Positions 8,963-46,425 of a stretch of 64,000 nucleotides of DNA are shown here, in pieces. The notes beneath the pieces were generated by a model. The model did not search any database and was not told the DNA's origin. It saw nothing but the letters and a program-made list of their open reading frames with translations. The DNA lies in IMG/VR virus record IMGVR_UViG_2703718775_000013; one strand, given 5' to 3'. This DNA is from a virus. Lineage: Duplodnaviria > Heunggongvirae > Uroviricota > Caudoviricetes. The position numbers and the translations under genes were made by a program. How positions within the stretch are numbered: position 1 is the stretch's first letter; every line of letters starts with the position of its first letter.

Positions 8963-9751
8963 ATGCTGGAAAAAGACTACCAGTTATCCGCATATAAAAA
9001 ATTGGCCGCCGCCGGTGGGATGAAAACACCTGGTGCCATAACATCGGCACGAAACAGTGCTAACACAGCAAAACTGCTTGCAGAAGAATTGACCGGATTA
9101 ATTCTGGATACAATTGTCTATCCCGACACTATTACCAGCTATGTTTCAACGATCAGAACAACCACAACCGGCTTAACGAACATTGGAGAACTGGCAACTA
9201 AGCACGCGGACCTGTTGGCTGGTTATGCAGATCTGTCAATGCTGCTTCAACTCGATATTGGTTGGGATGTTTACTGCCGTGCTAATGAGCGAGAAGTTTC
9301 AGAACTGCCGATCTCTATTGCCATTGGTGATGTGAATATTACTAAATCGCTTGAGGACGCTGTTAACGCGCTTAATACATCAAGTTTAGTCGCTGCAATG
9401 GGGGAGATTAACCAGGCCCTTAACACTGGCTCAGAAAGCTCGTCAGGCTCTGGTTCAGGCGGCGGCACTGCCACTCCCCCACCAGCACTAACAGAAGAGC
9501 AAATTGAATCTCTGAAAGTAGCAACTGAACAGTTTGGGGTTGTTTTCAACCAGACAACAGCACCCACAACTGCGTTACAACAGCAGTATGAACGAGCGAA
9601 TGAAAGCGCCAACGTAGCCATAACTGCTTATAACCATGCTATCGGTACCGCGCTTGCGGAAGCATCAGCAAATAAGGCCAGCACAGCCAGCGCAGTCGCC
9701 GCTTTGGTTCCTGATTCTGTTCTTGATGAATTAAACAAAGCGGCACGGTAA
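8963..9751 (+). CDS. hypothetical protein with Ser/Gly-rich linker
   Basis: ATG at 8963 preceded by AGGAGA; 262 aa (ORF track gives a longer 8906 start). Confidence 0.6.
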   Translation: MLEKDYQLSAYKKLAAAGGMKTPGAITSARNSANTAKLLAEELTGLILDTIVYPDTITSYVSTIRTTTTGLTNIGELATKHADLLAGYADLSMLLQLDIGWDVYCRANEREVSELPISIAIGDVNITKSLEDAVNALNTSSLVAAMGEINQALNTGSESSSGSGSGGGTATPPPALTEEQIESLKVATEQFGVVFNQTTAPTTALQQQYERANESANVAITAYNHAIGTALAEASANKASTASAVAALVPDSVLDELNKAAR

Positions 9752-9790
9752 CAAAGGACTTCATTGATAATTTTTCTTCAGGAGGAAGAC

Positions 9791-10213
9791 ATGTCATTCT
9801 TTTCTACGTTAAAAACAGCTTTGTCTTTGAAGGAGAAACTTGCTGCTACTGGTGTTCTTGTTCTGATTTGCGCACTTGTTGGTGCTGGGTTTGCATGGGA
9901 ACGTCATCAGCTAAAGCAAGCCATGGAGAAAATTGGCAGTCTTGATCAGGCTGTTAAGGAACGTGATAAGTCAATAATGGATCTTAACCAGACCATTGAG
10001 ACGATGAACAAAGCAGAGCAACATTTTCACAGCCAGGAAGTGAAAAATGAATCAGAACAAGCCAAATATGCTGACAGGCAAATGGAACGAAAAGCTGAAG
10101 TTCAGAAACAACTGGTTGCGGCGGGTAATGTTCGCCAGCGCATTCCTGCTGACACTCAGCGGTTGCTCCGGGAGTCGATCAGCGAATTTAACGCCGACGC
10201 CGACAAAGGTTAA
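9791..10213 (+). CDS. i-spanin (Rz-like)
   Basis: ATG at 9791 preceded by AGGAGG; N-terminal TM helix (ATGVLVLICALVGAGFAW) followed by coiled-coil-like charged region; overlaps an out-of-frame lipoprotein ORF. Confidence 0.65.
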   Translation: MSFFSTLKTALSLKEKLAATGVLVLICALVGAGFAWERHQLKQAMEKIGSLDQAVKERDKSIMDLNQTIETMNKAEQHFHSQEVKNESEQAKYADRQMERKAEVQKQLVAAGNVRQRIPADTQRLLRESISEFNADADKG

Positions 10214-10379
10214 CCACCCTGCCCCCAAAAGTGCGTTTATGTGCAGGATGCCAGAGTTTAGCAGTGAATATTTTGATGATCTGCCAGCGTATATCCTCGA
10301 TACAGAAACGATGCTGATGGGGATTAACAGGAAGAATCGCAACGTTAATGATTACAACCGCGCTATCAGCGGTAACTAA
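10068..10379 (+). CDS. o-spanin (Rz1-like outer-membrane lipoprotein), overlapped with i-spanin
   Basis: Alternate frame inside and beyond the i-spanin gene; signal peptide plus lipobox LLTLSGC, Pro-rich mature part (TPTPTKVNHPAPK). Start could also be ATG at 10128. Confidence 0.6.
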   Translation: MLTGKWNEKLKFRNNWLRRVMFASAFLLTLSGCSGSRSANLTPTPTKVNHPAPKSAFMCRMPEFSSEYFDDLPAYILDTETMLMGINRKNRNVNDYNRAISGN

Positions 10380-10390
10380 AAGGGATTTTT

Positions 10391-10783
10391 ATGTCTGATA
10401 AAGTAACAGTAAAGCAAACTATCAACAAAGCGACTTCAATTTACAAAATTGAGCACATCACTGTTGGCAAGCCAGGATCTGAACAATACCGTCATGCTTT
10501 CGAGCTTGCCGATCAGCTTGGTTTAAAACACCCGGATTGCATCGAGCATGTATTTCCGACCTATGCTGATGAGCAATGTACTCATGTTCTTACCGAAGAG
10601 GATTTTTTCAGCACTGAAGAACGAGAAGGCGTTGATCGCTGCATTGGTGTGATTTGCTCTTCAGTGAGTTATGAGTTATTCCCTAATGTCCATGAAAATG
10701 GTGGTATTGGATACCAATTCCTGTACGAAGGCGATGAGCTTAAATGTTATGAACATGGTCTTCTTATCGAAAGCGTAGAATAA
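10391..10783 (+). CDS. hypothetical protein
   Basis: 130-aa ORF with RBS-like spacing, followed by hairpin plus T-run. Confidence 0.6.
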   Translation: MSDKVTVKQTINKATSIYKIEHITVGKPGSEQYRHAFELADQLGLKHPDCIEHVFPTYADEQCTHVLTEEDFFSTEEREGVDRCIGVICSSVSYELFPNVHENGGIGYQFLYEGDELKCYEHGLLIESVE

Positions 10784-10825
10784 TACCCTTCCTTCCAACC
10801 GGCTATGTTGGCCGGTTTATTCAAC

Positions 10826-10905
10826 TTATCCACAGCATAGATCCAATAAACAGATCCTAAAGAGAACCCAGGAAGATCCAAAGAAGATCCCGGATCGCTG
10901 TAAGC
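10826..10905. promoter_or_regulatory. oriR-like origin core: DnaA box TTATCCACA (10826-10834) and cluster of five GATC sites
   Basis: Perfect DnaA box consensus and GATC-rich segment directly upstream of the iterons and repA, as in P1 oriR. Confidence 0.7.
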
Positions 10906-10936
10906 CGCGCCATTTCTGGCCTGAAATGGGATCAAC

Positions 10937-11058
10937 ATTGACTATACGCGATTTTATGTTGACTGTGCACGATTTATTGTTGACTGCACGCGATTTATTG
11001 TTGACTATATGCGACAGAAACATTGACTGTACGCGATTTTAGAGCCTGACTATTCACA
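10937..11058 (+). repeat. origin iterons (five to six direct repeats of about 21 bp, TTGACT(A/G)T(A/G)(C/T)(A/G)CGATTT)
   Basis: TTGACT motif recurs at 10938, 10959, 10980, 11001, 11023 (21-22 bp phasing) immediately upstream of repA. Confidence 0.85.
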
Positions 11059-11116
11059 GTTGTTGATAACTGCAATCCAGATGACGCCAGGCCGCGCCAC
11101 ATATGGAGAAACCACG

Positions 11117-12001
11117 ATGCTGGAAGAAAATAAAGGCTTCCTTAGCGTTGAAGAAGTTGCAGGAAATACAGGAGAAATCCACAGCCTGAAACCCAATAAC
11201 AATAGCACTATACAACCCATTGCTTTGTTGCGCTTAGGTGTGTTTGTGCCAACCTTAAAATCTACCAATGTGGCACTACGTCGCGGATCGTCAGTTACTA
11301 CAAACACAACGAACGCAACCGAAGAACTATCAAGCCTCAAAATTGTTGAGCAGGAAGGCTATGAGGGAATTGAAATTCATGGTCCACGCCTGGATATGGA
11401 TACTGATTTTAAGGTGTGGGTGGGCATAACCTCCGCGTTGTTTGACTACGCACCTGATGATGACGGCATAATCACCCTGCCATTCTCCGAGTTTGCCGAT
11501 CGATGCGGCTATCCACGTAAGCGCCTTTCAAAGGCGTTCCGTAAAAGTATTGATGACTCTCTGACACGCATTCAGCAGACAGTTGTCAAATTCCGCTTCC
11601 CGGCGGCAAAAGGTCATCTCAATAACATTAACGTCAACTTGTTGGCATATAGCAGCCTGAATACCGAGCTTGATGTTATCGAGATCCAGCCGCAGAAACA
11701 GCTATCTGAACTTTACTATGTTGACTATAAGCGAATCCTGAAGCTGAAGATGCTGGATAAGCTCGGGCGCAAAGAGACGGCCAAGGTACTGTATACATTC
11801 TTTGAGGCTCTACCCGCCAACCCGGCACCTGTCAGCATTGAGCGCCTTAGAGCAAGGCTTAATCTCAAATCATCCGTTAGCGTGCAAAATAGCGTTATCA
11901 GAAAAGCCATGAAAGATTTGGAAGCTATTGAATATCTTAAATTTTCAGAGATAAAAAACGGCAGGAAAATCGGCTTTCAGATCCATAAGCGCAATCCATA
12001 A
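11117..12001 (+). CDS. repA: plasmid replication initiator RepA (iteron-binding)
   Basis: ATG at 11117 with GGAG 9 nt upstream; protein contains LRLGVFVP...HGPRLDMDTDFKVWVGI segment as I recall for P1 RepA; flanked by iteron arrays on both sides. Confidence 0.8.
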   Translation: MLEENKGFLSVEEVAGNTGEIHSLKPNNNSTIQPIALLRLGVFVPTLKSTNVALRRGSSVTTNTTNATEELSSLKIVEQEGYEGIEIHGPRLDMDTDFKVWVGITSALFDYAPDDDGIITLPFSEFADRCGYPRKRLSKAFRKSIDDSLTRIQQTVVKFRFPAAKGHLNNINVNLLAYSSLNTELDVIEIQPQKQLSELYYVDYKRILKLKMLDKLGRKETAKVLYTFFEALPANPAPVSIERLRARLNLKSSVSVQNSVIRKAMKDLEAIEYLKFSEIKNGRKIGFQIHKRNP

Positions 12002-21049: not shown

Positions 21050-21073
21050 AAAGCTCCTTCGGGAGCTTTTTTT
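21050..21073 (+). terminator. rho-independent terminator
   Basis: AAGCTCCTTCGGGAGCTT hairpin followed by TTTTTTT. Confidence 0.75.
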
Positions 21074-21114
21074 GTGCTTAAATTATGCTGGTATAGCGAA
21101 ATTTTGAGCATATT

Positions 21115-21411
21115 ATGGAAATTGATTTTTCATACTCTCCTGAAACGATAGAACGAAGCTTCGAAATAATTGGATGCAAAACTATTTCAGAGGAGCATTA
21201 TTGGATTCTCTATGATGCCAATACATGGTTATGTGCCTTAGCAGAATGTCGGTCATCGTTATGTGCAGGGGAGGGAGGACTTCGACATAAGGTGCTGGCT
21301 ACACTTGAAGTGAACACGTTACGATATTGGTGTGTCGAAATACTTAGGAATAACAAAGAATTACATTTATTATTGCTGAATAAATGTGCACCTCTGCGCA
21401 GAAAAGCATAA
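21115..21411 (+). CDS. small Cys-rich hypothetical protein
   Basis: 98-aa ORF in AT-rich DNA, followed by hairpin plus T-run at 21539-21579. Confidence 0.4.
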   Translation: MEIDFSYSPETIERSFEIIGCKTISEEHYWILYDANTWLCALAECRSSLCAGEGGLRHKVLATLEVNTLRYWCVEILRNNKELHLLLLNKCAPLRRKA

Positions 21412-21577
21412 GAAAACCCAACAGCCATACTGGAATTATCAGAAGAATATGTGCGGAAAGTTATAGCTAGCTATTGAAAAGCTAAAGTAGATCGGTTAGA
21501 TTTGCCTTACTCATCTACCATGTGTAGAAAGAGCGATCGAACCCGATACATAGCAATATGTGTCGGGTTCAGCTTTT

Positions 21578-22042
21578 TTATGTCCCAAGCGCTCTTTTTC
21601 TGCTTTGTTTGAGTGTTCTGATTTTACTGTTATAGGTTACAACATAGGCTGTTTTAAGAAGCCAATAGTCTCTACGTGCGGATAGCACAACAACGTAGTT
21701 TTCACACTCGTTCCAGATTACCCATTCTTCAGTTGGTCCTCGTCTTTCAGACCAACATGATATATCGGAATGGTTATAATTCCTTATCATATGCGCGATC
21801 CAGCGGATCCGCTTACACCGTTCAAGATCAGGTATTCGTTCTTCTTCTATTTTTCCCTCTGATACTAAATGCCAAAATCCGAACTCTTTCCCATCATATT
21901 CCGGTGAATAACGTAATCGAACAGGGAGACCCTTAAACGTTATATTAGAGATTAAAATATCTTCTCTAACAACATCATATACATCGTCTATATACTCTTG
22001 CCAACTTCCATTGAAGTACAATAAATCTGGCATTTGAAGCAT
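21578..22042 (-). CDS. hypothetical protein, translationally coupled partner of upstream DUF3800-like gene
   Basis: ATG at 22042 overlaps upstream stop (TGATG); ORF track alternative start 22057; AT-rich codon usage. Confidence 0.55.
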   Translation of the reverse strand: MLQMPDLLYFNGSWQEYIDDVYDVVREDILISNITFKGLPVRLRYSPEYDGKEFGFWHLVSEGKIEEERIPDLERCKRIRWIAHMIRNYNHSDISCWSERRGPTEEWVIWNECENYVVVLSARRDYWLLKTAYVVTYNSKIRTLKQSRKRALGT

Positions 22043-22746
22043 CAGCGAGCCTCCCACACGAAAATATTAAATTTACTTTCTGTTGGAAGAGTGCTTTTTA
22101 GTAACTCCCTGTTTGTATGTGATTTTATCCTGTTTATGACTTGGATTTTTCCCGCGTTGCTATTCATTCCTCGATGAACGTAGCCTAACGCACCAATGAA
22201 AAGATCCGTTAGCTGCAATTGTTGCACTTCATGAGATCGTATATGTTGAATTCTGTTTATCGACTCATGATTGTAATCATAGCGATCATTGTGAAGAACT
22301 CCTCTTAATTTCTCAATTTTTTCAATACCTAAAGTATCTTTTATATCTAGGTAGATATTGTATGTGTTGTTACTTTCTATTATGTTTTTTAAGACATAAA
22401 AAAACATCTTATAATAGAAAGTATTATGATCTTGATGGAATCGAGCATGGTCCAGTTGCTCTTTATCAGGAACAACAACACCTCTAAAGCGCAATGCTGG
22501 GTTGCTGAAGAAGTAATCTACGACCTCTAAGTAAAATTCAACTTTGGACGCAGATACTTTAGTCCACTTGATTTCGAAATCAGGTTTTAAATTGTGTTTT
22601 AATTTTAATCCCTTGATGTCTCTAGCAATTTTTTTTGTGATAGTGCCAGGACACCAAAGCGCACCCAATACCATGACTTTATTATGATCATTTAGTAGGT
22701 GACAGGATTCATCGCAGAATACATTAAATGTTCTTCGGTTCAACAT
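22042..22746 (-). CDS. DUF3800-like hypothetical protein
   Basis: 234 aa; N-terminal FNVFCDESCHLL and C-terminal QLQLTDLFIGALGYV resemble my recollection of DUF3800 family conserved blocks; GGAG SD 6 nt before ATG; low GC. Confidence 0.55.
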   Translation of the reverse strand: MLNRRTFNVFCDESCHLLNDHNKVMVLGALWCPGTITKKIARDIKGLKLKHNLKPDFEIKWTKVSASKVEFYLEVVDYFFSNPALRFRGVVVPDKEQLDHARFHQDHNTFYYKMFFYVLKNIIESNNTYNIYLDIKDTLGIEKIEKLRGVLHNDRYDYNHESINRIQHIRSHEVQQLQLTDLFIGALGYVHRGMNSNAGKIQVINRIKSHTNRELLKSTLPTESKFNIFVWEAR

Positions 22747-22894
22747 GTTAACTCCACTTATTGTTAGGTAGAATTGTCCGTTAGTTGTTTATTAATTGCA
22801 ATAATTGGACGTTCTGATTTGCTAACTACGTCATCTTACCAGGACGCCTATGAGTTTTCCTCATGGCAAACTAGAGGTGTTGAAAGTATGCATG

Positions 22895-22910
22895 GTTATA
22901 ATTAGAGCAA
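22895..22910. promoter_or_regulatory. C1 operator-like site (core ATTAGAGCAAT)
   Basis: Core 11/11 match, flank diverged; lies between repL stop and the AT-rich cassette, overlapping a candidate -10 (TAATTAT) on the minus strand. Confidence 0.45.
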
Positions 22911-26576: not shown

Positions 26577-26597
26577 TCCATGCGTAGGAGTGGATTT

Positions 26598-26915
26598 ATG
26601 CTGATTCGTTTGTTTTTAGTGCTTTCCTTTTTAACATTTAATGTTTTTGCTGATGAAGTTGACTTTTCGAAGGTAGATTGCAATTCAGTGGAAACAAGAA
26701 AAGCTCTTATTGAAGAATATAACGAAATATTATCGTTATATGGAATAACAGTGGTTGATTCTTATAATCAAAAAACTATTCAGAAAGGAATAAATAAACT
26801 GGTTTGTTATGGGATTTACCAATATTCAGATGGCTCTTCGGAGTATGTTATTTATAAAGCATACCCAAATAGTCTTGGTGAATTGATTAGTGAGTTTAAA
26901 CCGATTAATGAGTGA
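26598..26915 (+). CDS. secreted hypothetical protein (signal peptide, two Cys)
   Basis: ATG at 26598 with AGGAG SD; MLIRLFLVLSFLTFNVFA-DEV...; GC about 30 percent. Confidence 0.6.
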   Translation: MLIRLFLVLSFLTFNVFADEVDFSKVDCNSVETRKALIEEYNEILSLYGITVVDSYNQKTIQKGINKLVCYGIYQYSDGSSEYVIYKAYPNSLGELISEFKPINE

Positions 26916-26922
26916 ATGGAAA

Positions 26923-27702
26923 ATGAAATTATTTAATGTAATAACATTTTGTTGTGCTATTTTTGCTGGAAGCGCGATAGCTGATAATAAATTGCCAGAT
27001 TGGCTTTCTACTTCAAAAAAAGATTATGATTTAGTAAGGGTGTTCTATTTGTCTGGATTTGCCTCGAAAGCAATGAATAATCAATTTGGTTATCATTTTC
27101 CATCTGAGTTGGTTAATGATTTTAAAGATAATGAATTTGCCGCTCAGGAAAAATGGAATAAAATTTCAATTGTATATGGTGAAATAAAATCCATAAGAAT
27201 GGTGAATAATGAACCAATTGTAGAGTTATTTACTCCAGGGGAAAATGCAACGCCACTAAATTATATCAAATTGAAAGTGTTGGATTCAAAACAAAACTCT
27301 CTGTTAAAACTAAAAAAAGGGGATGATATATATGCAGTGTGCTCCGGTGCTAATTTTAGTTTAGTGCCAATTCTGAGCAACTGCACTCCAGCAACTGACG
27401 TCATTGATGCTGCACTCTCTTTTTCTGGTGAATATATGTTCCCTGCTTTTGATTCTTTTTCACCTACTAAGCAAAACGTCAAATATATATTCACAAATCA
27501 AGATCCTGTTCAGATGATGAATTTTATAGGGTACCTATCCTTAGTCGATACAACGAAGGATAAGAATAAAATGGATATGGTTCGTAAGTGTACGCCTTGG
27601 AAGCCGGAATGTTCACAACAATTCGTTGATGTAATGGAAGGATTTGATAACATCATGTATAAATATGAGAGGGAATTTAAAAATTACATAGAATTAAAAT
27701 AG
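26923..27702 (+). CDS. secreted hypothetical protein (signal peptide), candidate superinfection-exclusion-type function
   Basis: MKLFNVITFCCAIFAGSAIA-DNK...; 259 aa; AT-rich; followed by terminator. Confidence 0.6.
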   Translation: MKLFNVITFCCAIFAGSAIADNKLPDWLSTSKKDYDLVRVFYLSGFASKAMNNQFGYHFPSELVNDFKDNEFAAQEKWNKISIVYGEIKSIRMVNNEPIVELFTPGENATPLNYIKLKVLDSKQNSLLKLKKGDDIYAVCSGANFSLVPILSNCTPATDVIDAALSFSGEYMFPAFDSFSPTKQNVKYIFTNQDPVQMMNFIGYLSLVDTTKDKNKMDMVRKCTPWKPECSQQFVDVMEGFDNIMYKYEREFKNYIELK

Positions 27703-27735
27703 TATTTGAAATGATAGTCAATTTAAGTTTTAACA

Positions 27736-27766
27736 AAACGCCCATTAAAGGGCGTTTTATTGTTTT
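27736..27766 (+). terminator. rho-independent terminator
   Basis: AAACGCCCATTAAAGGGCGTTT hairpin then T-rich tract. Confidence 0.7.
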
Positions 27767-27887
27767 ACTCAAAACAATCTGATTATGTGATAACCATATC
27801 ATATTCCTCATTCCACCTACACTGATTACCCCCCAGACAACAACATTCCTACTCAATGAACAAATGACTACTCGTAGAATCGGTTAA

Positions 27888-35286: not shown

Positions 35287-36122
35287 TGCAGCGTTCCTGG
35301 TTTAATAACCGGCTTACATCAGCTAAGCAAAAGTCATTGCTCTATAAATCATTGGCTGATTTGGTTCAGTCAATGATGGACACCTTTGTTGACCCATGGT
35401 TGGAGCGAATTACCAACCGGAAGTCTATTTTCTCCATGAGCAAGGAGGATCTGGAGACCAGGACAAATGAACTTGGCCAGTTCTTTACTATCAGAACCTC
35501 GGACTCATCTTCCGTTCCGATGTTGTTACAACAGCGGCTTGATGAGATCCACTTTAAGGGAACAGAACGTCCTATAAACCAGACAATTTACCGCGAATTT
35601 AACGGTATTTCTGTTTTATGGGATCCGATATATGCACCGGTGGACCTTGAGCGTCATCCCTATGGCACGGTTCTAATACCAGAAAGCACACTGGAGACTA
35701 CCGGCGGCACATTCGGCGAGATGTTTCTGACTTCCAGAGGGATGATCAGTATTCCCATAAACGACCTGGCCCGGACAATGGGTATTACTGGCACGATAGA
35801 TCAGTCCGCAATTACAGAAGAAATTCTCAGAAAGTTTAATCAGTTCGTAAAGCCTCTACTGCCACTGCATATAGTGTTTGATGGGCTTACGCTCTATTTG
35901 TCGGTTGTTGTAAATGAACAGGCCGACATGATCACTTTGAACGAGATTTCTGATACCGAAAAAGCATTCTGCTGGTTTGAAACTTCGGATACAACTTCGC
36001 TTACTGGAGTTACGTCGATTAGCGCCCCGATCACCGCAACGCCTGGTGGCACTATTGTGAAAGCGACACCTACGTTTGATCGCACCCGCGCAGATGATTT
36101 GTTGCTGGATAGCGACGCCTGA
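35283..36122 (+). CDS. baseplate/tail protein candidate
   Basis: 279-aa ORF coupled to upstream gene. Confidence 0.55.
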   Translation: MMQRSWFNNRLTSAKQKSLLYKSLADLVQSMMDTFVDPWLERITNRKSIFSMSKEDLETRTNELGQFFTIRTSDSSSVPMLLQQRLDEIHFKGTERPINQTIYREFNGISVLWDPIYAPVDLERHPYGTVLIPESTLETTGGTFGEMFLTSRGMISIPINDLARTMGITGTIDQSAITEEILRKFNQFVKPLLPLHIVFDGLTLYLSVVVNEQADMITLNEISDTEKAFCWFETSDTTSLTGVTSISAPITATPGGTIVKATPTFDRTRADDLLLDSDA

Positions 36123-36200
36123 CAATCACCCCGTCCGCAGGGCGGGGTGACAAGTTACTTCTCTTACAATGAGGCTTCACAACAGTGATTAGGGAAAATC

Positions 36201-36635
36201 ATGTCTGACGTCTCAACAAACCTCTATAAGAGTCAGTTGTTGGACTATTACTATCAGCGGCGCGCTGAATCGTCCATTAACAAAGGCTCTCGATTTTTAA
36301 TCAGCAAGGCCGTTTTCGGTACCAGTTCTCTGGTTACTAAGAAAGGAGATGGCACTTATGAGATTGGAGAACTGCCAAAGGCTTTCGATCTGGCAGAACT
36401 GACCAGCCAATTTTGTACCATCAACCTCGTGCCAACCTACTCAGGTGGGATAATTACTGTCCGAATGGACCTTGATCAAAGCCAGTTGCAGGAAGGGAAA
36501 AACTACCCATTCAACACTCTGGTTGTTCTGGATAACGAGAACAAGCCAATCGCCATTATTTGTGTCCAGGAAGACTCGCTGTATGTGGGCAAAACATATA
36601 CCGCAGTTATGGCCATAAACACGACTACAGCATAA
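36201..36635 (+). CDS. tail fibre-associated structural protein (R-like position)
   Basis: 144-aa ORF directly upstream of tail-fibre gene. Confidence 0.5.
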
Positions 36636-36646
36636 GGATATGCTTG

Positions 36647-39496
36647 ATGAATGACGTTACAGTTGTTACATCGGTTACTTACCCATCACCCGAGTCGTTG
36701 GCTCTGGTTGCTGATGTGCAATACCACGAACCATATCTGTCAGCCGCGCTAAACCGAAAATTCAGGGGGATTGTTGACCCGGGATTTTATGCCGGTTTCT
36801 TACCTAAGCCTGGCGGTGGGATGAACCTGTTAATCACCTCTGTGGATGGTGATAAAACTGCTGGCGCAGCGTCAGTGGATATTGGTGAATTCTACCAGGT
36901 AACTATTCAGCATCGTAAGGATATTTCTCTTGCACTTAGCGCAGGTAAGAAATATGCAATTGTGCTGAAGGGAAGATACCTCCTTGGAGAGGATACCTAT
37001 CAGGTTAATACCGCGTCACATATTCATGCGGCTGAATTTGTTACCAGAACCTATACCGATTCATATCAGTTAGGAGATGGGGAGCTGCTTGTTTGTACGG
37101 TGAATATCCCTGCTGGAGTATCAGCCATTACCCAGGAGATGATTGATACATCCGAGCGTATTAACCGCACGATCGGCATTGATATTTCAGACTCTGTAAC
37201 CAGTACCAGAAGTGATGTTGCTGCAAGTTCGCTGGCAGTTAAAAAAGCCTACGATCTGGCGAAAAGTAAGTATACGGCGCAGGATGCAAGCACAACGCAA
37301 AAGGGATTAGTTCAGCTCAGTAGCGAAACTAACAGCGACAGCGAAACAATGGCGGCTACCCCTAAAGCCGTTAAGTCTGTAAAAGATCTTGCTGATACCA
37401 AAGCGCCAATAGAAAGCCCGAGTCTGACAGGAACGCCAACCGCGCCGACGGCAGCACAAGGTACAAATAGCACGCAGATCGCAAATACAGCCTTTGTTAA
37501 GGCAGCTATAACGGCACTTATCAACGGTGCACCTGGCACACTGGATACGCTTAAAGAAATAGCTGCTGCGATCAATAACGACCCGAATTTCAGCACAACT
37601 ATCAACAATGCTCTGGCTCTTAAAGCTCCTTTAGCAAGTCCTGCATTAACGGGAATACCTACTGCGCCTACCGCTGCACAGGGTACGAATAACACGCAGA
37701 TTGCTACGACCGCTTATGTAAGAGCTGCCATATCCGCATTGGTTGGTTCATCACCAGAAGCTCTTGATACCCTGAATGAGCTTGCCGCAGCACTTGGCAA
37801 TGACCCGAACTTTGCGACAACAATGACAAATGCGCTGGCAGGCAAACAGCCTCTGGATGCAACTTTAACCGCTCTCGCTGCCCTTGCGACTGGTGCAAAC
37901 AAACTGCCTTATTTCACTGGTAAGGATACGGTAGCTCAGACTGATTTAACGTCAGTCGGTCGCGATATTCTGGCTAAAACAAGCACACAGGCCGTTATCC
38001 AATACCTTGGTTTAAGAGAACTCGGTACCAGCGGTGAAAAGATCCCCCTGTTGAGCACGGCTAACACATGGAGTGCGCGCCAGAGTTTCAACGGCGGGAT
38101 CACCGGGGCGCTGACAGGGAACGCCGACACCGCGACGAAATTAAAAACAGCCATAAACATTAATGGCGTCAGGTTCGATGGTTCGGCTGACATTAATATC
38201 AATACTCTGGTATCTCGCGGTCGCGTAACGGCCCTAGAGGCGAATGCACAGGGAACATCCGGGATTCAGCTGTATGAGGCATACAACAATGGCTACCCTT
38301 CCACCTATGGCAATGTGCTTCACCTTAAAGGTGCCACCGCTGCTGGCGAAGGTGAGTTATTCATTGGCTGGAGTGGCACGAGCGGTGACCATGCGCCCGT
38401 ACATATCCGTTCGCGGCGTGATACTGATTCTGCCAACTGGTCTGAATGGGCGCAGGTCTATACGTCAAAAGATTCAATTCCCGGCGTCAATGCCAAAGGG
38501 GATCAGGACACCTCTGGTAATGCGGCTACAGCGACCAAGTTGCAGACAGCATGTACTATCAATGGCGTCTCGTTTGATGGTTCTACTGATATCACTTTAA
38601 CCGCTGCGCATGTTGCTGCTTTTGCCAGAAGAGCAACGGATACGTATGCCGATGCGGATGGGGGCGTTCCCTGGAATGCCGAATCAGGCGCTTACAATGT
38701 CATTCGCTCTGCCGACAGCTATATTCTGGTTAACTTCTATACCGGAGTCGGAAGTTGCCCGACCTTGCAGATGAAGGCGAATTACAGAAATGGTGGTCTG
38801 TTCTACCGTTCTTCAAGAGACGGTTATGGTTTTGAGGAAGACTGGGCAGAAGTTTATACCTCGAAAAATCTTCCACCAGAAAGCTACCCAGTCGGCGCAC
38901 CAATCCCGTGGCCATCAGATACCGTTCCGTCTGGTTATGCCCTGATGCAGGGGCAGACTTTTGACAAATCTGCATACCCGAAACTTGCAGTCGCTTATCC
39001 GTCAGGCGTTATTCCTGATATGCGTGGCTGGACGATTAAGGGCAAGCCCGGCAGTGGTCGTGCCGTATTGTCTCAGGAACAGGACGGCATTAAATCGCAC
39101 ACCCACAGCGCCAGCGCATCCAGTACGGATTTGGGGACGAAAACCACATCGTCGTTTGATTACGGTACTAAAACGACCAGTTCATTTGATTACGGCACAA
39201 AAACTACGAATAGCGCTGGAAATCATTCACACAATATACCTGTTGGTCACACTGGCGCGGGGAATGGTGTATCAGCCGGTTTTAACGCTGCGTTAGGTAC
39301 TGGTACCACGTCGAGCGCAGGCGAGCATGCTCACAATGTATATATCGGTGCCCATAACCACACTATCGGCATTGGTGCTCATGCCCATTCTGTCATTATT
39401 GGTCCCCACGGACACACCATCACCGTTAACGCTACGGGTAACGAAGAAAACACCGTAAAAAACATCGCATTTAACTATATTGTGAGGCTTGCATAA
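36647..39496 (+). CDS. S: tail fibre protein (S-like) with internal tandem fibre repeats and His-rich C-terminal tip
   Basis: ATG at 36647; repeats ...[29 protein letters not shown]... duplicated; C-terminus has triple [10 protein letters not shown] and HxH motifs ([33 protein letters not shown]). Confidence 0.8.
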
Positions 39497-40074
39497 TGAC
39501 ATTCAGAATGAGTGAACACTCACGGACCATAAAAATTTATAATCTACTGACCGGAACCAATGAGTTTATTGGTGAAGGTGATGCATACATTCCACCTCAT
39601 ACAGGTCTGCCTGCAAACAGTACCGATATTGCCCCGCCAGATATTCCGGCTGGCTTCGTGGCCGTTTTCAACAGTGATGAGGCATCGTGGCATCTCGTTG
39701 AAGACCATCGGGGTAAAACGGTTTATGACGTGGCATCAGGGGACTCGTTATTTATTTCTGAACTCGGTCCATTACCGGAAAATGTCACCTGGTTATCCCC
39801 GGAAGGGGAGTTTCAGAAGTGGAACGGCACAGCCTGGGTGAAAGATGCAGAAGCAGAAAAACTGTTCCGGATCCGGAAGGCGGAAGAAACAAAAAACAGC
39901 CTGATGCAGATGGCCAGTGAGCATATTGCGCCACTTCAGGATGCCGTAGATTTGGATATTGCGACGGAGGAAGAGGCATCGTTACTGACTGCATGGAAGA
40001 CATATCGGGTATTGTTGAATCGTGTTGATACAACAGTAGCATCGGATGTTGAGTGGCCAGTCGCCCCGCAATAA
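39496..40074 (+). CDS. U: tail fibre assembly chaperone (U/Tfa family)
   Basis: 192-aa ORF overlapping S stop; the ...[11 protein letters not shown]... segment resembles the conserved N-terminal part of Tfa/U proteins. Confidence 0.7.
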
Positions 40075-40117
40075 AAGGATAAAGCCATCGATAGAAATAT
40101 TGATGGCTTCATGTACT

Positions 40118-40621
40118 CTATTTATACAATACAACACCGCTCTTTTTTGTTATATATGTGCAGTTCGATGGTATATCTTTATTTATAAAAGACATTGCAC
40201 CTATTTTTACATTATCCCCAATTTTACGTGATAATCCAATGATGCAACAATTAGCTCCGATATCAACGTTATTACCAATTTTTACTCTTGAACCAGGCAT
40301 GTCACCATCTACCTGTCCAATGGTAGTATTCTGTCGCAAAACCAGATTTTCACCAGCATCAACAGCAAAATGAACAACAATTCCAGTATGATGGGGAATT
40401 GTTAAACCTTTTCCAATATTTGCGCCCAATCCAATTTCGCAACCAAATCTGTTAATTATATTATTGTTTAACTTTCTGGCTGCTTTCTTATGTAATTTAT
40501 TGCCATTAATATACATTTCATTAGCCAGTCTCCACCAGAAAAGGAAATTCCGATTGCGCTGCTTCTTCTCTCTTAATAGTCGCCAAACATCCATTTTTTC
40601 ACGCCTGATGATTTCAGCCAT
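40118..40621 (-). CDS. hexapeptide-repeat (left-handed beta-helix) acetyltransferase, WcaB/CysE-like
   Basis: Hexapeptide repeats (IGLGANIGKGLTI, VKIGNNVDIGANCCIIG, IGDNVKIGAMSFI); start chosen at ATG 40621 (ORF track gives 40690); very AT-rich context. Confidence 0.65.
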   Translation of the reverse strand: MAEIIRREKMDVWRLLREKKQRNRNFLFWWRLANEMYINGNKLHKKAARKLNNNIINRFGCEIGLGANIGKGLTIPHHTGIVVHFAVDAGENLVLRQNTTIGQVDGDMPGSRVKIGNNVDIGANCCIIGLSRKIGDNVKIGAMSFINKDIPSNCTYITKKSGVVLYK

Positions 40622-41180
40622 CCAATAGCTCAATAGAGCTTTTGAATTCCCGAAGATGACAAAGTGAATAGCTATTAAGTAACATAACATATTGCAACTG
40701 CCTATATTTTTTGGTTTCTATGGTTATATATTGACATTATAATTAAAACAATAATCATCAGTGTGTTACTGCGTTCCTGCTAAACTAAATCAACGCACAA
40801 TGTAAACACAAATGTTAATTTTAAGCTGAGCGCTAAAGGGATGTCAATATTGTATTGATAATGAGTTGCAAGATTGCCAACACTTTCTATATTTTTGGAT
40901 GCAATAATTTATATTTTATCTATTTAGTGTTTCTTTAGACTTATTAAGGATATCATTATTAATTTATGGCTTGCCATTTCTATACATATCTGTTAAAAAT
41001 TTTGACTTGTTTGTTGAAAATAGATTTAATTGATTGGTTTATTTTTTACATGACGCTCTTTAATATAACTTCAGGTATATATAAGCACAATGCATTATTT
41101 CCAGAGGAAATTAACAAAATTGTTAGCTCTTATTTGTTGAGCTTATAGATATTAATTAAGGCCCGATTCCGGGCCTTTCC

Positions 41181-41414
41181 TCATTCCGGCTTTTCGGGAA
41201 ACGTTACTGGAAGGATGGAGGTATCCGTGGATTCGACTTTCTGCGCATAGAGAATCCACTCGGTTAATTTTTGTTTACCCTGAACGGAAATAATGCCTAG
41301 CCGTAACTGTGAGTCCCAGAGCTGAGTTTTATCCCTGACGAGCTGTAGCAGGCTTTGCTTTTCTTTTTCCGCTTGTTGTCTTTGCATGACCGGTTGAGAA
41401 GTTACTTTGCATAC
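41181..41414 (-). CDS. small hypothetical protein
   Basis: About 78 aa from ATG 41414, divergent from lydA; longer ORF-track version would overlap lydA. Confidence 0.35.
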   Translation of the reverse strand, partial: VCKVTSQPVMQRQQAEKEKQSLLQLVRDKTQLWDSQLRLGIISVQGKQKLTEWILYAQKVESTDTSILPVTFPEKPE

Positions 41415-41445
41415 CATTACCTCCTGACAACGTAGGAGGGAACTT

Positions 41446-41775
41446 GTGCTTGACACACAGGAATTAGCTCCAGTTGCTATTGCGCTCCTGCTTTCAGTAA
41501 TTGGTGGGATAGGCACGTTCCTGATGGATGTCCGAGACGGTCGCCAGTCTGGCAATTTGTTGGGATTGGTTACGGAGATCTTTGTTGCAGTGACAGCTGG
41601 CGCGGTGGCGTACCTATTGGGGCAACACGAGGGCTGGGAGTTATCAATTACGTACTTAATGGTAACGATAGCCAGCAATAACGGTCATGAGGTGATTTCA
41701 GGGATGAAACGAGTGAATATCGATAGCATTCTGAATGTTCTTACAAGTTTGGTGAAAAAGGGAGGTGGGAAATGA
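41446..41775 (+). CDS. lydA: holin LydA-like
   Basis: 109 aa with hydrophobic TM segments, followed by overlapping lydB-like gene; layout of recalled P1 lydA-lydB. Confidence 0.65.
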   Translation: MLDTQELAPVAIALLLSVIGGIGTFLMDVRDGRQSGNLLGLVTEIFVAVTAGAVAYLLGQHEGWELSITYLMVTIASNNGHEVISGMKRVNIDSILNVLTSLVKKGGGK

Positions 41776-42215
41776 TTGGCTGGGGTGTATGCGCTCTTGC
41801 GTTAGCCTTAGCCGATCGCTATTTGCTAAAACGCAAGGACATCACGCATTTAGAACTTGGTGATGTGGAAATTAAACCGGGTTTCATCCGGGTGCCGTTC
41901 AAATACCGGTCTAAATTCCCGTTTTTGCGCGGCGCAACGGTCAGATATTGGATCCGCGATGTTCAGAAGCCAACGACAGTGATTGAAGGCGAACAACGTT
42001 GTCTGACGTCGGCTGAACAGGGCGAAAACAGTGAATGGTTGTACATACCCACTGAATATATGGGTAAAGGAGAACGGCTGTGGCATTTCAACGTCATGGT
42101 TACGCATGGCGACTCGTTCATTAACCCGTTGTATCGGATTTTCCCTGTTACTCAGCAAATCCGCAGAAGTTACGTAATAAATCTCGCACAGGATGTGTCA
42201 GATGACGAAAAATAA
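41772..42215 (+). CDS. lydB: antiholin LydB-like
   Basis: 147-aa ORF overlapping lydA stop by 4 nt. Confidence 0.6.
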   Translation: MIGWGVCALALALADRYLLKRKDITHLELGDVEIKPGFIRVPFKYRSKFPFLRGATVRYWIRDVQKPTTVIEGEQRCLTSAEQGENSEWLYIPTEYMGKGERLWHFNVMVTHGDSFINPLYRIFPVTQQIRRSYVINLAQDVSDDEK

Positions 42216-42804
42216 GTATGCAACGGTCGATTTTGACCAGGTTAATGAAAAGGGGCTGAAATCCCTTATCGCGGCGATCAATAAAACCGGTGTTACGGTA
42301 ATTGAGGTTGACTCCAGCAACCGCGCAACAACGAAAGATGGCGTTAAAGTTAAAACCGCAAAGCTGGTTCTTAACGACGGACAAATTCTTGCCATACAGG
42401 TAAACGATACTGGCGATATATCGTCTGTGAGGCTGAATGGAAAAGCTATTCCTAACGCTCAGTCGCCGGATATCAAGACGCTTGGTACCGTCATGGGGCA
42501 AGCGGCCCGCAAAAACTCCGCAAAATTCCAGAAATCACTGATCGCCAAAGCGAAACGTGTTGCCAATCCGGTAGACAAGAAACCGGCAGTAAAATCCAAC
42601 TTTCAGCGCCTGCAAGAGGCAAAACAGCGGAATGCTCAGGTGGTTGCCGCTTATAAATCAGCGCAGAACTCGGTGTCTTTCAATCAACAGCAGATCACTG
42701 ATTTGCGGGCGAAGCTGGATAAGGAGACAGGCCGACTCAATAACGAAAAGGCCCGAAATGGCGAACTCAAACGCCGTCTTAAGCAACTGAAAGCAGGAAA
42801 TTAA
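42202..42804 (+). CDS. hdf: Hdf (homolog of DarA fragment)
   Basis: Shares a segment with the downstream DarA ORF (KNSAKFQ motif and flanking residues) and sits directly upstream of darA. Confidence 0.65.
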   Translation: MTKNKYATVDFDQVNEKGLKSLIAAINKTGVTVIEVDSSNRATTKDGVKVKTAKLVLNDGQILAIQVNDTGDISSVRLNGKAIPNAQSPDIKTLGTVMGQAARKNSAKFQKSLIAKAKRVANPVDKKPAVKSNFQRLQEAKQRNAQVVAAYKSAQNSVSFNQQQITDLRAKLDKETGRLNNEKARNGELKRRLKQLKAGN

Positions 42805-42805
42805 C

Positions 42806-44725
42806 ATGGAACAGTTCAATATCAATAAAGGGGTGACGATCAAGCCTGGGCTTGACGTGCTTCCCCCGCCAGTGACTGATGATGAATATCGCGCATTAAT
42901 GGCCGGTGAGGACCGCTATCTGATGACGGAATCCAACACCCTGGAGGAAATCGAGGCTACGTTCTTCTATGACACGCCGATCCACTGGTGTGCTACGGAT
43001 TTACTGGAGGCGATTAGTTCTACTCGTTTGCAGCTACACCGGACCATGCAGGCATTTGTCCGGGCATTGAACCAGAAGCTGAATGGTACCGGAATCTCTG
43101 CGGGGAGTGATAAAACGGGGGACGTGGCCCAGAACGGTGCACGCGCGATCGGCGGGGCTGAAATTGGCCGGGCACGTAACGTTAACGGGCTGCCGGTCCT
43201 GCCAGCCATTATTCCGCTCAGTGATGGTCAGACTATCAGCATTCTGTTTCATAGCCCGACAGCGGAAAACCGGATCACCAATAGCGATACGCTGATTGCT
43301 TTCCAGTTCTTACTGAATAAAAAAGACGTTACTCATACCGTTGCTCCGATGAGTGGACGTGATATGACGCTGGCGCAGGTCACCATGAAACTTGCCAACC
43401 TTGCAGAGAAAAACTCGGCAAAATTCCAGCGTGCGCAGAAGAAGAAAAAAGCCCTGGTTGATGAAATAACCCAACTACAGGCTGACAGTGACCAGAAAGA
43501 GGATGCCATGAGCGACCTCGCGGATCAGGTGGCAGCGGTAGAAGGGCAGAAGGTAGATCTGGAGCAGAAAATTAACGCTGTTGCATCGGAAGCGGATTCT
43601 CTTTATGAAGAGAATGAGCGTTTGCAGACGGAGATTGATCAGCTCAATCGAACTGGTGGGCGCGAAACCATTGCTCCTGCGGGGATGACTGGTAGACACT
43701 CTCGCGCGATGACGGATCGCCTTGCAAGTATCAAAAATCGTATGCATATGAACGGGGAAGTGACGCTCAGTAATGGTGCATCAATGAAGCAATTCATTGA
43801 GGACGGTGAAGGGTATATCCAGTTAACCGATTCGGATGGCAGCGTGTACATGATCAAGGCTAAATCCATACAGGGTGTGGACATGGCAGATGCGATCGGC
43901 AAGCTGTTTAAAGCCTATAAAGCGGGTAATGTATCGGAATATCTGGTCCAACCAGAAGAACATAAACCGGAAAACGTCGAACCTGAACCAGCGGAGGATA
44001 CCGGTAGCTCTTCGCCTGAACCAGAAGTCTCTGTAGGTGCATATCGATATGCCCTGCAAATGCGTCCGGCGGCCCCTGGCGCAATACCTGAAGGTAATAA
44101 AGCGATTCTGCCGCGCCCTGATGAAGGTGACCCGTATTATGAATATGCACGCTACGGCATTGCTACTTACGATACCCCGCTTTCTGATCAGCAAATGAGT
44201 GAGTACGACCTGAAGTTATTGCCTCGCGAGGATTCTTTCGACTTCCTGGCGAAGACACTTACTAATGGTCCGTTTGGCAAATATGCACAAAAAGCTCTGG
44301 AGCTGGCCACCAGCTCACCAGACGAGTTCCGCGTAATGCTGAAGACTCAGTTTCAAAAAACTTTCCCCAATATTGCGTTTCCGGGGGGCGCTGGCACCGA
44401 GAAAATGGTGCAGAGCATGATCAATGCATTGCAGGCCGAAGTCGGTGAGATTACTCAGCCAGAACCGGCCCCGGCACAGCCTGATGAAACGGTTAGCGAA
44501 GCAGATGCAGAGGCTAATAAAGCCATTGAATATCTCAATAACGTGATGGATATGCAAAGCACTGACATGGCGGAGATCCGTAACGCCCGGGGCAATGTCC
44601 GGGAAGCGATTGCAGCCCTTCAGGCTGCCGGACGTTTTGAGGAAAACGAAGAGCTGGTTAACGGTGCTGCTCGCCACCTGGCTGATCTGCTGGTAGCAAT
44701 CCAGAAAGCGGGGGTAGCGGCATGA
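42806..44725 (+). CDS. darA: antirestriction head protein DarA
   Basis: 639-aa ORF in hdf-darA-ddrA order; size matches recalled P1 DarA. Confidence 0.75.
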   Translation: MEQFNINKGVTIKPGLDVLPPPVTDDEYRALMAGEDRYLMTESNTLEEIEATFFYDTPIHWCATDLLEAISSTRLQLHRTMQAFVRALNQKLNGTGISAGSDKTGDVAQNGARAIGGAEIGRARNVNGLPVLPAIIPLSDGQTISILFHSPTAENRITNSDTLIAFQFLLNKKDVTHTVAPMSGRDMTLAQVTMKLANLAEKNSAKFQRAQKKKKALVDEITQLQADSDQKEDAMSDLADQVAAVEGQKVDLEQKINAVASEADSLYEENERLQTEIDQLNRTGGRETIAPAGMTGRHSRAMTDRLASIKNRMHMNGEVTLSNGASMKQFIEDGEGYIQLTDSDGSVYMIKAKSIQGVDMADAIGKLFKAYKAGNVSEYLVQPEEHKPENVEPEPAEDTGSSSPEPEVSVGAYRYALQMRPAAPGAIPEGNKAILPRPDEGDPYYEYARYGIATYDTPLSDQQMSEYDLKLLPREDSFDFLAKTLTNGPFGKYAQKALELATSSPDEFRVMLKTQFQKTFPNIAFPGGAGTEKMVQSMINALQAEVGEITQPEPAPAQPDETVSEADAEANKAIEYLNNVMDMQSTDMAEIRNARGNVREAIAALQAAGRFEENEELVNGAARHLADLLVAIQKAGVAA

Positions 44726-45087
44726 CACTATCAGCTATTGAGTTAATGGACCTCAGCGATAAGTTGGATGCTCTGATGTCCAAAGCGGCTACCGCGAGTG
44801 GCATGGAGTTGCTGGATATCAGCGATGAAATTGACCAGATCATGCAACAGATGGGGTACGGCGCGTCCGGCGGCAGTAGTGGCGAGGAAAAACAACCTTC
44901 GGTACATGATGGTGTGCCAAAACTGGTTGCTGATTTCCTGGCTGATAAATTCGTCGATCAGAGCACTGATGCATTTATCGGTACGTTACAGGACTTGAGT
45001 CAATATGTTGGCACATACATCGACCTGGACCAGGTTAAACAGCACACGGCGGCATGGATAGCCGCCAACATTAAAGAGGCAGCGTGA
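44722..45087 (+). CDS. ddrA: DdrA-like protein
   Basis: 121-aa ORF overlapping darA stop; synteny-based. Confidence 0.55.
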   Translation: MTLSAIELMDLSDKLDALMSKAATASGMELLDISDEIDQIMQQMGYGASGGSSGEEKQPSVHDGVPKLVADFLADKFVDQSTDAFIGTLQDLSQYVGTYIDLDQVKQHTAAWIAANIKEAA

Positions 45088-45089
45088 CA

Positions 45090-46425
45090 TCCTCCACGCC
45101 CCGAAGGGCGTGGATTCCTGCTACGTTCAGGCTGTCGCCTGAATCATTTTGGTGGGTTCCTGCTTCAACGGGCGGCCTGACTGCACCATCCCTCCACAGG
45201 CAAGTACGGCGTGCCCCGCCGCTAAAATGTTACGAGCGCCGTTTACATCGGCGTTCGCTGTATATCCACATACCTGGCATCTGAATTTACTTTGTGACAG
45301 GCGATTTTCTTTCGCTGTATGACCACAGCACGCGCAACGCTGGCTTGTGTACGCTGGCGGAACAGCAAGCACCTGACCGCCACGCCAGAGCTGCTTGTAC
45401 TCAAGCTGGCGGCGCATTTCATACCAGCCCTGATCCAGTATCGAACGGTTTAAACCTGATTTTGCCCGGACATTGCGACCCGGATGACTTATCGTTCCCG
45501 CCGCTGACTTTGACATGTATTTAACCTTCAAATCCTCAATGACAATCATTGCGTGGTTTTTGCTGACGGTCGTTGTGACTTTGTGAAGGTAGTCCCTGCG
45601 GATATTTGCGATACGGGAATGCAGTCGCTGTATTTTGCGTTTCTGCTTCTGCCAGTTGTTGCTGAATTTGACCTTGCGGCTTAACTGTCGCTGAAGTCTC
45701 GCCAGCTTCTTCTGGTTTTTCTGAAAACTATTTACAGGTTCAAAGACTGTGCCATCTGACAGCGTGGCGAGTTTAGCCACGCCAGCATCCAGTCCGACCA
45801 TTGATGCTGAAGGGTGAACAGGAGTGGATACCTCTCTTTCTGTCTGAATACTGATGTACCACTTACCGCAGGACTGGCTGACAGTAACATTTTTCACAAT
45901 ACCCGTGACCTGACGGCTATTCCGGTAGCGCATCCAGCCAAGTTTCGGCAGAAAAATACGGCTGTTTTCCTGATCGAGCTTAACACCCTGCGGGTAGCGG
46001 AATGCATCATTCTGTCCCCGCTTTTTGAATCGGGGAAAAGCTGCCCGATTCTGGAAGAAGTTTTTGTAAGCCCGCTCAAGGTCTTTCAGTGACTGTTGCA
46101 ATGGCTGTGAGGGAGAATCTTTAAGCCATTCGGTTTCAGTGTCTTTTTTCCACTCAACCAACCAGGAAGCCATTTTCGTGTAAGGGATGTATTTTTTACC
46201 GGCCTCATGATTCTCATTCTGAAGCGCCAGAGCACGGTTGAAAACGAAACGACAAGCTCCGGCAAAGCGCCTCATTTGACGCTCCTGTTGACCATCTGGT
46301 TTTAACCGGAATTTGAATGACACCTGTTGTTTCATGTCACTATTTTAAGCAAAAATAGCCGGGAGGAAAACTGTGCCTTATATCCCCACTATGAGGAGCG
46401 TAGGGGGCGGCACATTGGATAAGGC
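45090..46425 (-). mobile_element. IS200/IS605-family insertion sequence, tnpB-only (IS1341-like), inserted between ddrA and ddrB
   Basis: Single TnpB gene, subterminal hairpin CCACGCCCCGAAGGGCGTGG at 45096-45115 just past tnpB 3' end, TTAC (reverse complement of GTAA at 46426-46429) abutting the proposed left end; no tnpA. Boundaries approximate. Confidence 0.6.
45127..46335 (-). CDS. tnpB: TnpB (OrfB) RuvC-like RNA-guided nuclease of IS200/IS605 family
   Basis: 402 aa; C-terminal zinc ribbon [11 protein letters not shown]...[18 protein letters not shown]; typical OrfB_IS605 architecture. Confidence 0.85.

Follow-up and report, generated by a model that had tools for sequence, protein, structure and literature searches.

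A hexapeptide-family acetyltransferase gene in a locked derivative of the P1 C segment and its possible role in lipopolysaccharide modification

Introduction

The Cin-invertible C segment of phage P1 (compare the G segment and Gin of Mu) is the closest described system for the locus considered here, which lies in a stretch of 64,000 nucleotides from a Caudoviricetes virus (IMG/VR record IMGVR_UViG_2703718775_000013), hereafter referred to as the window. The window is a P1-like phage-plasmid, and its positions 36001-45083 are 98.8 % identical to plasmid pO111_2 (NC_013370) of Escherichia coli O111:H- strain 11128; a query limited to 39400-41800 matches the same plasmid at 99.3 %. The gene order comprises baseplate genes, R, the tail fibre gene S, the tail fibre assembly gene tfa, an acetyltransferase gene on the minus strand, a 490-bp spacer, lydA, lydB and the darA operon, so that R, the constant part of S and the lydA, lydB and darA operon flank the locus as they flank the C segment of P1. 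The locus descends from a variant P1 C segment and is now frozen, and we consider it on balance probable that it carries a phage-borne moron which acetylates lipopolysaccharide (LPS), probably in its core.

Three groups of described enzymes are relevant to the acetyltransferase. NeuO of prophage CUS-3 in E. coli K1, a phage hexapeptide O-acetyltransferase encoded beside a tailspike gene, resembles the window protein as a soluble hexapeptide-family enzyme beside a temperate-phage receptor-binding gene, and a shared glycan-modifying role is plausible. The window protein differs from NeuO in belonging to a CysE/WcaB-like clade with a helical N-terminal domain and in matching a NeuD/NnaD-family model, which does not represent the family of NeuO itself, only at E=2.6e-7; moreover, no tandem repeats that could confer NeuO-like phase variation occur in or before the gene. 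The enzymes of the WcaB/EpsC/CysE clade share the fold, the catalytic histidine and the acidic residue with the window protein, and WcaB and EpsC are of comparable length, whereas the window protein scores below every cut-off of these families, has motifs of its own and lies outside wca, eps and cys clusters. Finally, Oac and OafA of converting phages are membrane O-antigen acetylases of the acyltransferase-3 family. The proposed outcome, LPS acetylation by a temperate phage, would be the same, but the proteins are unrelated: the model of the window protein combines a soluble-type helical domain with a β-helix, no Acyl_transf_3 domain was matched by Pfam in the protein, and the enzyme would need the cytoplasmic side and acetyl-CoA.

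The initial annotation of the locus described a WcaB/CysE-type hexapeptide acetyltransferase on the minus strand, in AT-rich DNA directly after the tail fibre assembly gene, at the position of cin and the invertible tail-fibre C segment in P1, and without a serine invertase. In P1, the corresponding position is taken up by cin and the distal half of the C segment. The description is borne out by the 190-aa open reading frame (ORF), its match to the Pfam family Hexapep and its sub-threshold matches to the EpsC, CysE and WcaB models, by its position 44 bp past the stop of a Caudo_TAP gene, by a GC content of 0.32-0.36 across the gene and 0.27-0.28 upstream of it, and by the negative tblastn searches given below. 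The proposed relation between the acetyltransferase and the missing switch has to be revised.

An intact, inverting C segment in sister plasmids

In JL22 and several plasmids, the gene order is S, tfa (plus strand), the acetyltransferase gene, U', Sv' and cin (all minus strand), lydC and lydA; the JL22 acetyltransferase is 95 % identical to that of the window. The gene occupies a central position in an intact 5.46-kb Cin-invertible C segment in JL22, CP041922, CP126933 and CP009051. The Tfa, acetyltransferase, U' and Cin proteins of CP041922 are identical to those of CP126933. Over 5,464 bp bounded on either side by cix cores, the two plasmids are collinear with 99.9 % identity, and the flanking DNA is inverted; CP009051 is in the same flipped state. 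The acetyltransferase-bearing segment thus inverts in sister plasmids, and since both orientations are found with cix-core boundaries, acetyltransferase and switch coexist. This contradicts the earlier proposal that the element had exchanged host-range switching for surface modification: comparison of other P1-like genomes at this locus, which the initial annotation had called for, finds the gene within a complete Cin/cix segment, in both orientations, and switching in the window was lost by a separate 2.9-kb deletion (junction 41385/41386).

The sister segment is longer than that of P1 (5,464 bp versus 4,256 bp). In P1, U and U' are separated by a gap of 28 bp that consists of a hairpin, whereas the sister segment holds non-fibre cargo in a 1.1-kb interval between tfa and U'. 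In place of one P1 cassette, Sv-U, the sister segment has a lambda-type Sv end followed by tfa, a hairpin, and the acetyltransferase gene with its leader. The replacement module abuts the central U/U' hairpin, which gives the acetyltransferase gene its central position. When the segment is flipped, the gene follows R-S(c+v')-U' on the same strand, while in the locked state of the window it is convergent with S-tfa and antisense to the fibre operon. A rather doubtful suggestion from this arrangement is that the inversion switch may couple surface acetylation to fibre choice and, separately, that the family may be an unrecognized LPS-core O-acetyltransferase carried by about 10 % of E. coli genomes, O157:H7 and O104:H4 among them. 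If this were true and read-through mattered, receptor modification would be tied to the host-range state, and the window lineage would represent one of the two switch states in fixed form.

Deletion of the switch in the window

The window has the same gene order and deletion junction as pO111_2 (99.3 % identity) and phage vB_EcoM-Ro157c2YLVW (97 %), in contrast to JL22, which retains the whole invertible segment with cin and lydC. In comparison with P1, the window keeps the cix site within S and the 0.6-kb repeat, both identical, together with a remnant of U' and the central hairpin, but is devoid of the second cix site and repeat, cin, Sv' and lydC. The remaining cix site (TTATCCAATACCTTGGTTTAAGAGAA, 37997-38022), found by pattern match and sequence comparison, is identical to P1 cixR and also to the JL22 site. 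It lies at the edge of the single remaining copy of the C-segment inverted repeat (37997-38585), which was recognized as an inverted match to positions 10302-10890 of the JL22 locus (L001) at 97.3 % identity. The earlier statement that cix-like sites are absent consequently holds for 40075-41180 but fails for S.

An inverted copy of fibre genes had likewise been reported as missing, and this is incorrect: the 3' end of U', an inverted tail fibre assembly gene, begins directly beyond position 41180. About 68 of its codons remain at 41181-41385 on the minus strand (phrog_3792, E=2e-32). The remnant aligns to JL22 U' and is annotated as U' in phage Ro157c2YLVW; the fused ORF extends to 41417. Just after the U' stop, a GC-rich hairpin (AAGGCCCGATTCCGGGCCTT, 41158-41177), predicted by folding with a z-score of only -1.7, corresponds to the hairpin occupying the 28 bp between U and U' in P1 (GACAAGGCCCGATAGCGGGCCTTAATTT).

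The deletion junction was placed at 41385/41386 by blastn coordinates and base-level comparison with JL22. The window lacks the equivalent of JL22 positions 8963-11860 (2.9 kb), which hold the 5' two-thirds of U', Sv', the second 0.6-kb repeat, the cin-proximal cix site, cin and lydC. The P1 late promoter LPdar (41399-41417, plus strand; -22 box AAGTTACTT, -10 box TACCAT) is intact and identical to the annotated P1 promoter, with its -22 box starting 13 bp past the junction. No Cin invertase was detected by tblastn with JL22 Cin in the 64-kb window or in complete pO111_2, and no inverted repeat of at least 18 bp, as a second cix site or repeat copy would form, was present in 36000-42500. With a single cix site and a single repeat copy, and without cin, Sv' or a second cassette, the window segment cannot invert, and the variable part of S is fixed in the expressed orientation.

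Cin-mediated deletion was considered as the origin of the junction and rejected, as neither endpoint falls at a cix site. The possibility that cin is encoded elsewhere in the element, which the initial annotation had named as a reason to abandon its view, was rejected on the basis of the negative searches of window and plasmid. The same junction is found in the record of phage Ro157c2YLVW, whose named host is a Shiga toxin-producing E. coli (STEC) O157, and because a phage record carries the junction, the deleted form is presumably still able to make virions.

Between the window and Ro157c2YLVW, the acetyltransferase gene and spacer form two haplotypes about 5 % apart in an otherwise near-identical backbone with the same junction, and the mismatches cluster in 40000-41200. 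This pattern points to a recombinational swap of the cassette that postdates the deletion, or to patching of the region from a second copy.

The acetyltransferase and its family

The acetyltransferase gene (40118-40690, minus strand) encodes a 190-aa protein of the CysE/WcaB/EpsC clade (PHROG 2154), with a helical N-terminal domain followed by a left-handed β-helix. The protein is 100 % identical to that of pO111_2 and has hundreds of homologues down to about 40 % identity. The idea of a host gene fragment, raised at the outset as a possible objection, was rejected, as the ORF is intact and the pO111_2 protein identical. It matches PHROG 2154, a phage family of unknown function, over the full length (E=1.9e-83, residues 13-190 on profile positions 3-181 of 185). 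Pfam Hexapep is matched at E=1.9e-5 with 24.6 bits, slightly under the gathering score of 27, and 23 hexapeptide families of NCBIfam are matched as well; the protein belongs to the hexapeptide (left-handed β-helix) superfamily.

Within that superfamily, it is nearer to the CysE/WcaB clade than to the LacA/Maa/Vat clade. Nevertheless, it reaches no curated NCBIfam cut-off, the shortfall being 2-9 fold: 77.5 bits against 150 for EpsC, 56.5 against 194.65 for WcaB, and, for the two CysE models, 65.6 against 210.65 (TIGR01172) and 42.2 against 397 (NF008349). Pfam reports no SATase_N domain in the protein. The family is marked by the signature motifs FLFWWRLANEMY, RQNTTIG and IGAMSFINKDIP.

Alignment to solved CysE structures places His100 on CysE His158 and Glu85 on Asp143, the catalytic pair; at least 90 % of the 39 homologues compared retain His100, and all aligned sequences have either Glu or Asp at position 85. 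In CysE (E. coli numbering), Asp157, Arg192 and His193 bind serine, and the C-terminal tail binds CysK. The equivalent of Asp157 is Pro99, which is variable across the family, that of Arg192 is Arg135, which is not conserved across the family, and His193 falls in a gap; the C-terminus, ending in VVLYK, is variable and lacks the CysK-binding C-terminal Ile. The retention of the catalytic pair, the loss of the serine-binding residues and the missed cut-offs indicate that the protein, judged by its residues, is an active-looking, apparently acetyl-CoA-dependent enzyme of the CysE/WcaB clade with an acceptor other than serine. The name 'serine O-acetyltransferase' found in databases is probably an over-prediction.

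The AlphaFold model (pLDDT 77, pTM 0.75) contains five N-terminal helices, and beyond residue 84 short strand segments consistent with a β-helix. Among PDB structures, it is most similar to serine acetyltransferases (TM-score about 0.65, Foldseek probability 1.0).

Gene contexts of relatives

On viral contigs, the downstream neighbour could be seen for 33 distinct variants, and in 27 of them a convergent Caudo_TAP gene lies 4-54 bp away. All variants with at least 62 % identity show this arrangement, except for two that are paired with HtrL, as do three of the nine variants between 42 % and 55 % identity. The distance of 43-54 bp between tfa and the acetyltransferase gene is kept in relatives.

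A second type of context is provided by LPS genes. In Leminorella, a waa operon consists of waaP, glycosyltransferase genes of families GT4 and GT8, waaY, an ORF and the acetyltransferase gene, followed by convergent waaL. The Halopseudomonas member adjoins hldE, msbA and a Kdo-kinase-like gene, and a member from a Pseudomonas metagenome-assembled genome adjoins an msbA-like gene, with weak GT8 and waaL-like matches nearby. In the alignment, these members from LPS loci are full-length and carry the signature motifs of the family. Furthermore, a Xenorhabdus prophage copy is paired with a family-25 LPS glycosyltransferase (GT25), other prophage copies with HtrL, and one copy abuts ugd/arn genes. 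The scan of genome contigs gave six family loci among the 80 loci listed, the others being mostly distant generic hexapeptide enzymes. No wca, eps, wec, kps, cys or O-antigen clusters (wzx/wzy with nucleotide-sugar genes) were seen among the examined loci. A conserved partner gene was not found either; neighbours across the loci are not homologous, and relaxed Pfam scans added nothing.

Distribution and origin of the module

The 520 nt proximal to tfa, comprising the hairpin and the C-terminal ~145 codons of the acetyltransferase gene, match chromosomal P2-like prophages at 93-95 %. Such matches occur in 530 of 5426 complete E. coli genomes (~10 %), including the P2-like prophages of O157:H7, O104:H4 and O111, in which the gene lies between tfa and tail gene U. 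The AT-rich spacer and the N-terminal codons, on the other hand, occur only in P1-like plasmids (65 of the 5426 genomes, all plasmid-borne, and 33 plasmid records among those matching the locus). The spacer has no similarity to the other fetched loci by blastn or tblastx, and all matches from a distant search of E. coli genomes lay on P1-like plasmids. The acetyltransferase gene was more probably brought in, as a passenger, with a fibre module of the lambda-Stf/Tfa type that P2-like prophages share.

Two further arrangements were observed in E. coli. In three P2-like prophage loci (L008-L010, 6617-8244), the acetyltransferase gene is followed by an 87-aa truncated Caudo_TAP ORF, a gene for a 222-aa class-I methyltransferase, which is a second cargo gene at this spot, and a full tail fibre assembly gene. 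In the chromosomal loci L004-L007 (5662-6573), a 55 %-identical member follows tail-fibre genes and a hok/gef-type toxin gene at a prophage boundary, adjoining a heavy-metal P-type ATPase gene.

Other features of the locus and the window

The tail fibre gene S (36647-39496, plus strand) consists of a constant part and a variable part of lambda-Stf/T4-gp37-like type (Pfam Phage_fiber_2, Collar and gp37_C); its start follows the PGAP annotation of pO111_2, as transferred to the window. The following tfa gene (39496-40074, plus strand) encodes a 192-aa protein of the lambda Tfa type (Caudo_TAP, E=6e-43) and has about 90 % nucleotide identity to lambda tfa. Inside its coding sequence, an Rfam match to IS009 RNA was noted at 39900-40037 on the plus strand (126 bits versus a gathering score of 117), covering model positions 62-199 with the 5' end clipped by the search boundary.

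Between the convergent tfa and acetyltransferase genes lies a hairpin (40082-40109) with folding energies of -16.6 and -17.0 kcal/mol on the two strands; it is very stable (z-scores -4.3 and -4.6) and is a probable bidirectional terminator. Upstream of the acetyltransferase gene, the spacer (40691-41180) has 27-28 % GC; the GC content is 0.27-0.28 across 40750-41200, while the flanks of the locus reach 0.45-0.50. A candidate sigma-70-like promoter (40818-40847, minus strand), composed of TTGACA, an 18-nt spacer and TAAAAT, lies about 128 nt upstream of the acetyltransferase ATG. It agrees with the consensus at 11 of 12 positions, and both hexamers are invariant among five plasmid/phage variants. 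No credible RNA family was found in the spacer in an Rfam search of 39900-41600 (cyano_tmRNA scored 19 bits against a gathering score of 70), and no support was found for small ORFs in the spacer, such as 40966-41148. Downstream of the deletion junction, the holin gene lydA and lydB (41446-42215, plus strand; Pfam Phage_holin_3_3 and LydB) mark the start of the darA operon.

Elsewhere in the window, 21073-22900 and 26585-27859 have no long match in pO111_2 and are probably variable cargo near the antirepressor/icd region, while the remainder up to 63244 aligns at 96-99.97 %. An insertion of 1.3 kb (45084-46418) in the dar region, between ddrA and ddrB, is absent from pO111_2, JL22 and Ro157c2YLVW. 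It encodes a 402-aa TnpB of the IS200/IS605 family (ORF 45127-46335, minus strand) with OrfB_IS605, Cas12f1-like TNB and HTH domains; no tnpA was seen adjoining it.

Possible function of the acetyltransferase

The history of the locus began with the replacement of the P1 Sv-U cassette by a lambda-type Stf end, tfa, the terminator hairpin, the acetyltransferase gene and its AT-rich leader. A later 2.9-kb deletion in pO111_2-like STEC plasmids then locked the lambda-type fibre in the expressed orientation while sparing LPdar. As to acceptor, timing of expression and phenotype, we infer that the enzyme would be cytoplasmic, trimeric by analogy with its family and acetyl-CoA-using, that it may be transcribed in the lysogen from its own conserved sigma-70-like promoter, and that its acceptor would be an LPS sugar, most probably of the core oligosaccharide, acetylated at the cytoplasmic face before export. 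The altered surface may affect LPS-binding phages, either by superinfection exclusion or by reducing the loss of progeny on lysogen debris; alternatively, antigenicity may be changed. LPS acetylation is favoured because the homologues link to both tail-fibre genes and LPS genes. The initial annotation had already proposed modification of surface polysaccharide, and the waa-operon members and the pairing with GT25 and HtrL lend that proposal indirect support. For the Citrobacter phage PhiNP, which uses LPS as its receptor, a cargo gene labelled 'serine acetyltransferase' is listed (PMC6456863).

Several points weigh against LPS core acetylation. We are not aware of any description of O-acetylation in the E. 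coli core. Only three of the six family loci among those listed from the genome collection lie in LPS-core clusters, several chromosomal homologues form isolated islands without LPS neighbours, and some neighbour assignments are weak (20.4 bits for the Kdo family and 23.2 bits for Wzy_C). The β-helix half of the AlphaFold model is of low confidence (pLDDT 54-70), and the promoter is a prediction from consensus. Adjacency to tail-fibre genes could also arise simply because insertions are tolerated where a late operon ends, together with hitch-hiking on fibre modules. Literature searches found no functional study of the family, and the authors of the JL22 paper, who noted the gene ('sacF') as a serine acetyltransferase, give its role as unknown (PMC9603915).

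Another envelope glycan (O-antigen units, colanic acid, enterobacterial common antigen or capsule) may be the acceptor instead, in which case the enzyme would bring about classical serotype or lysogenic conversion. The nearest curated models, EpsC and WcaB, represent exopolysaccharide enzymes, the AT-richness resembles that of polysaccharide gene clusters, and the Leminorella waaL and the Wzy_C-type neighbours would fit O-antigen work as well. However, none of the examined loci contains a wca, wec, kps or O-antigen cluster, and the informative chromosomal contexts are core and lipid A loci (waaP, waaY, GT8, msbA and hldE), so that this possibility appears unlikely, although it is the one that fares best after acetylation of the LPS core.

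The hexapeptide enzymes include the resistance proteins Vat and CatB, and a role in defence, counter-defence or the acetylation of small molecules (xenobiotics or antibiotics) would suit a gene in a phage moron hotspot. The window protein is nevertheless nearer to CysE and WcaB than to the LacA/Maa/Vat clade, no PADLOC-DB v2 model matches it even at E<=1, and it is encoded by a single gene without a partner. In P2-like phages, the site between fibre and tail genes is known to harbour morons (PMC6823313), and hotspots of antiviral systems are described for these phages in a paper whose main text does not contain the word 'acetyltransferase' (PMC9122126). On this evidence, a defence-related or small-molecule function is improbable.

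Slightly less credible again is a genuine serine O-acetyltransferase that would serve as an auxiliary metabolic gene and raise the supply of O-acetylserine and cysteine. The database names, the conserved catalytic histidine and acid, and the best PDB matches in both sequence and fold, which are CysE, speak for such an enzyme. They are opposed by scores far under the cut-offs of TIGR01172 and NF008349, the absence of a reported SATase_N domain, the loss of the serine-binding residues and of the CysK-binding Ile, and gene contexts that are phage tail and LPS loci and never cys genes. Finally, action of the enzyme on the phage's own tail fibre or its chaperone would explain the tight linkage to tfa, with a convergent Caudo_TAP pairing conserved in variants of as little as 42-55 % identity (three of nine), but it is very improbable, as other members of the family are found in waa operons and isolated islands that have no phage genes, the gene is antisense to the fibre operon in the frozen orientation, and we know of no hexapeptide acyltransferase that modifies proteins.

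Conclusions

The acetyltransferase gene and the arrangement of the locus are already present in public databases, having been sequenced and annotated many times, and the P1 host-range switch was lost from the window through a plain deletion without a functional trade, an ordinary genome feature. The family itself is common: of 5426 complete E. coli genomes, 530 have close copies, major STEC lineages among them, and these copies nearly always adjoin receptor-binding genes of temperate phages. Databases label it as an enzyme of cysteine biosynthesis, a label that the residue analysis contradicts. If acetylation of LPS proves to be true, the family would be a widespread but overlooked factor that determines phage susceptibility and possibly antigenicity, with relevance for phage therapy and for the typing of STEC.

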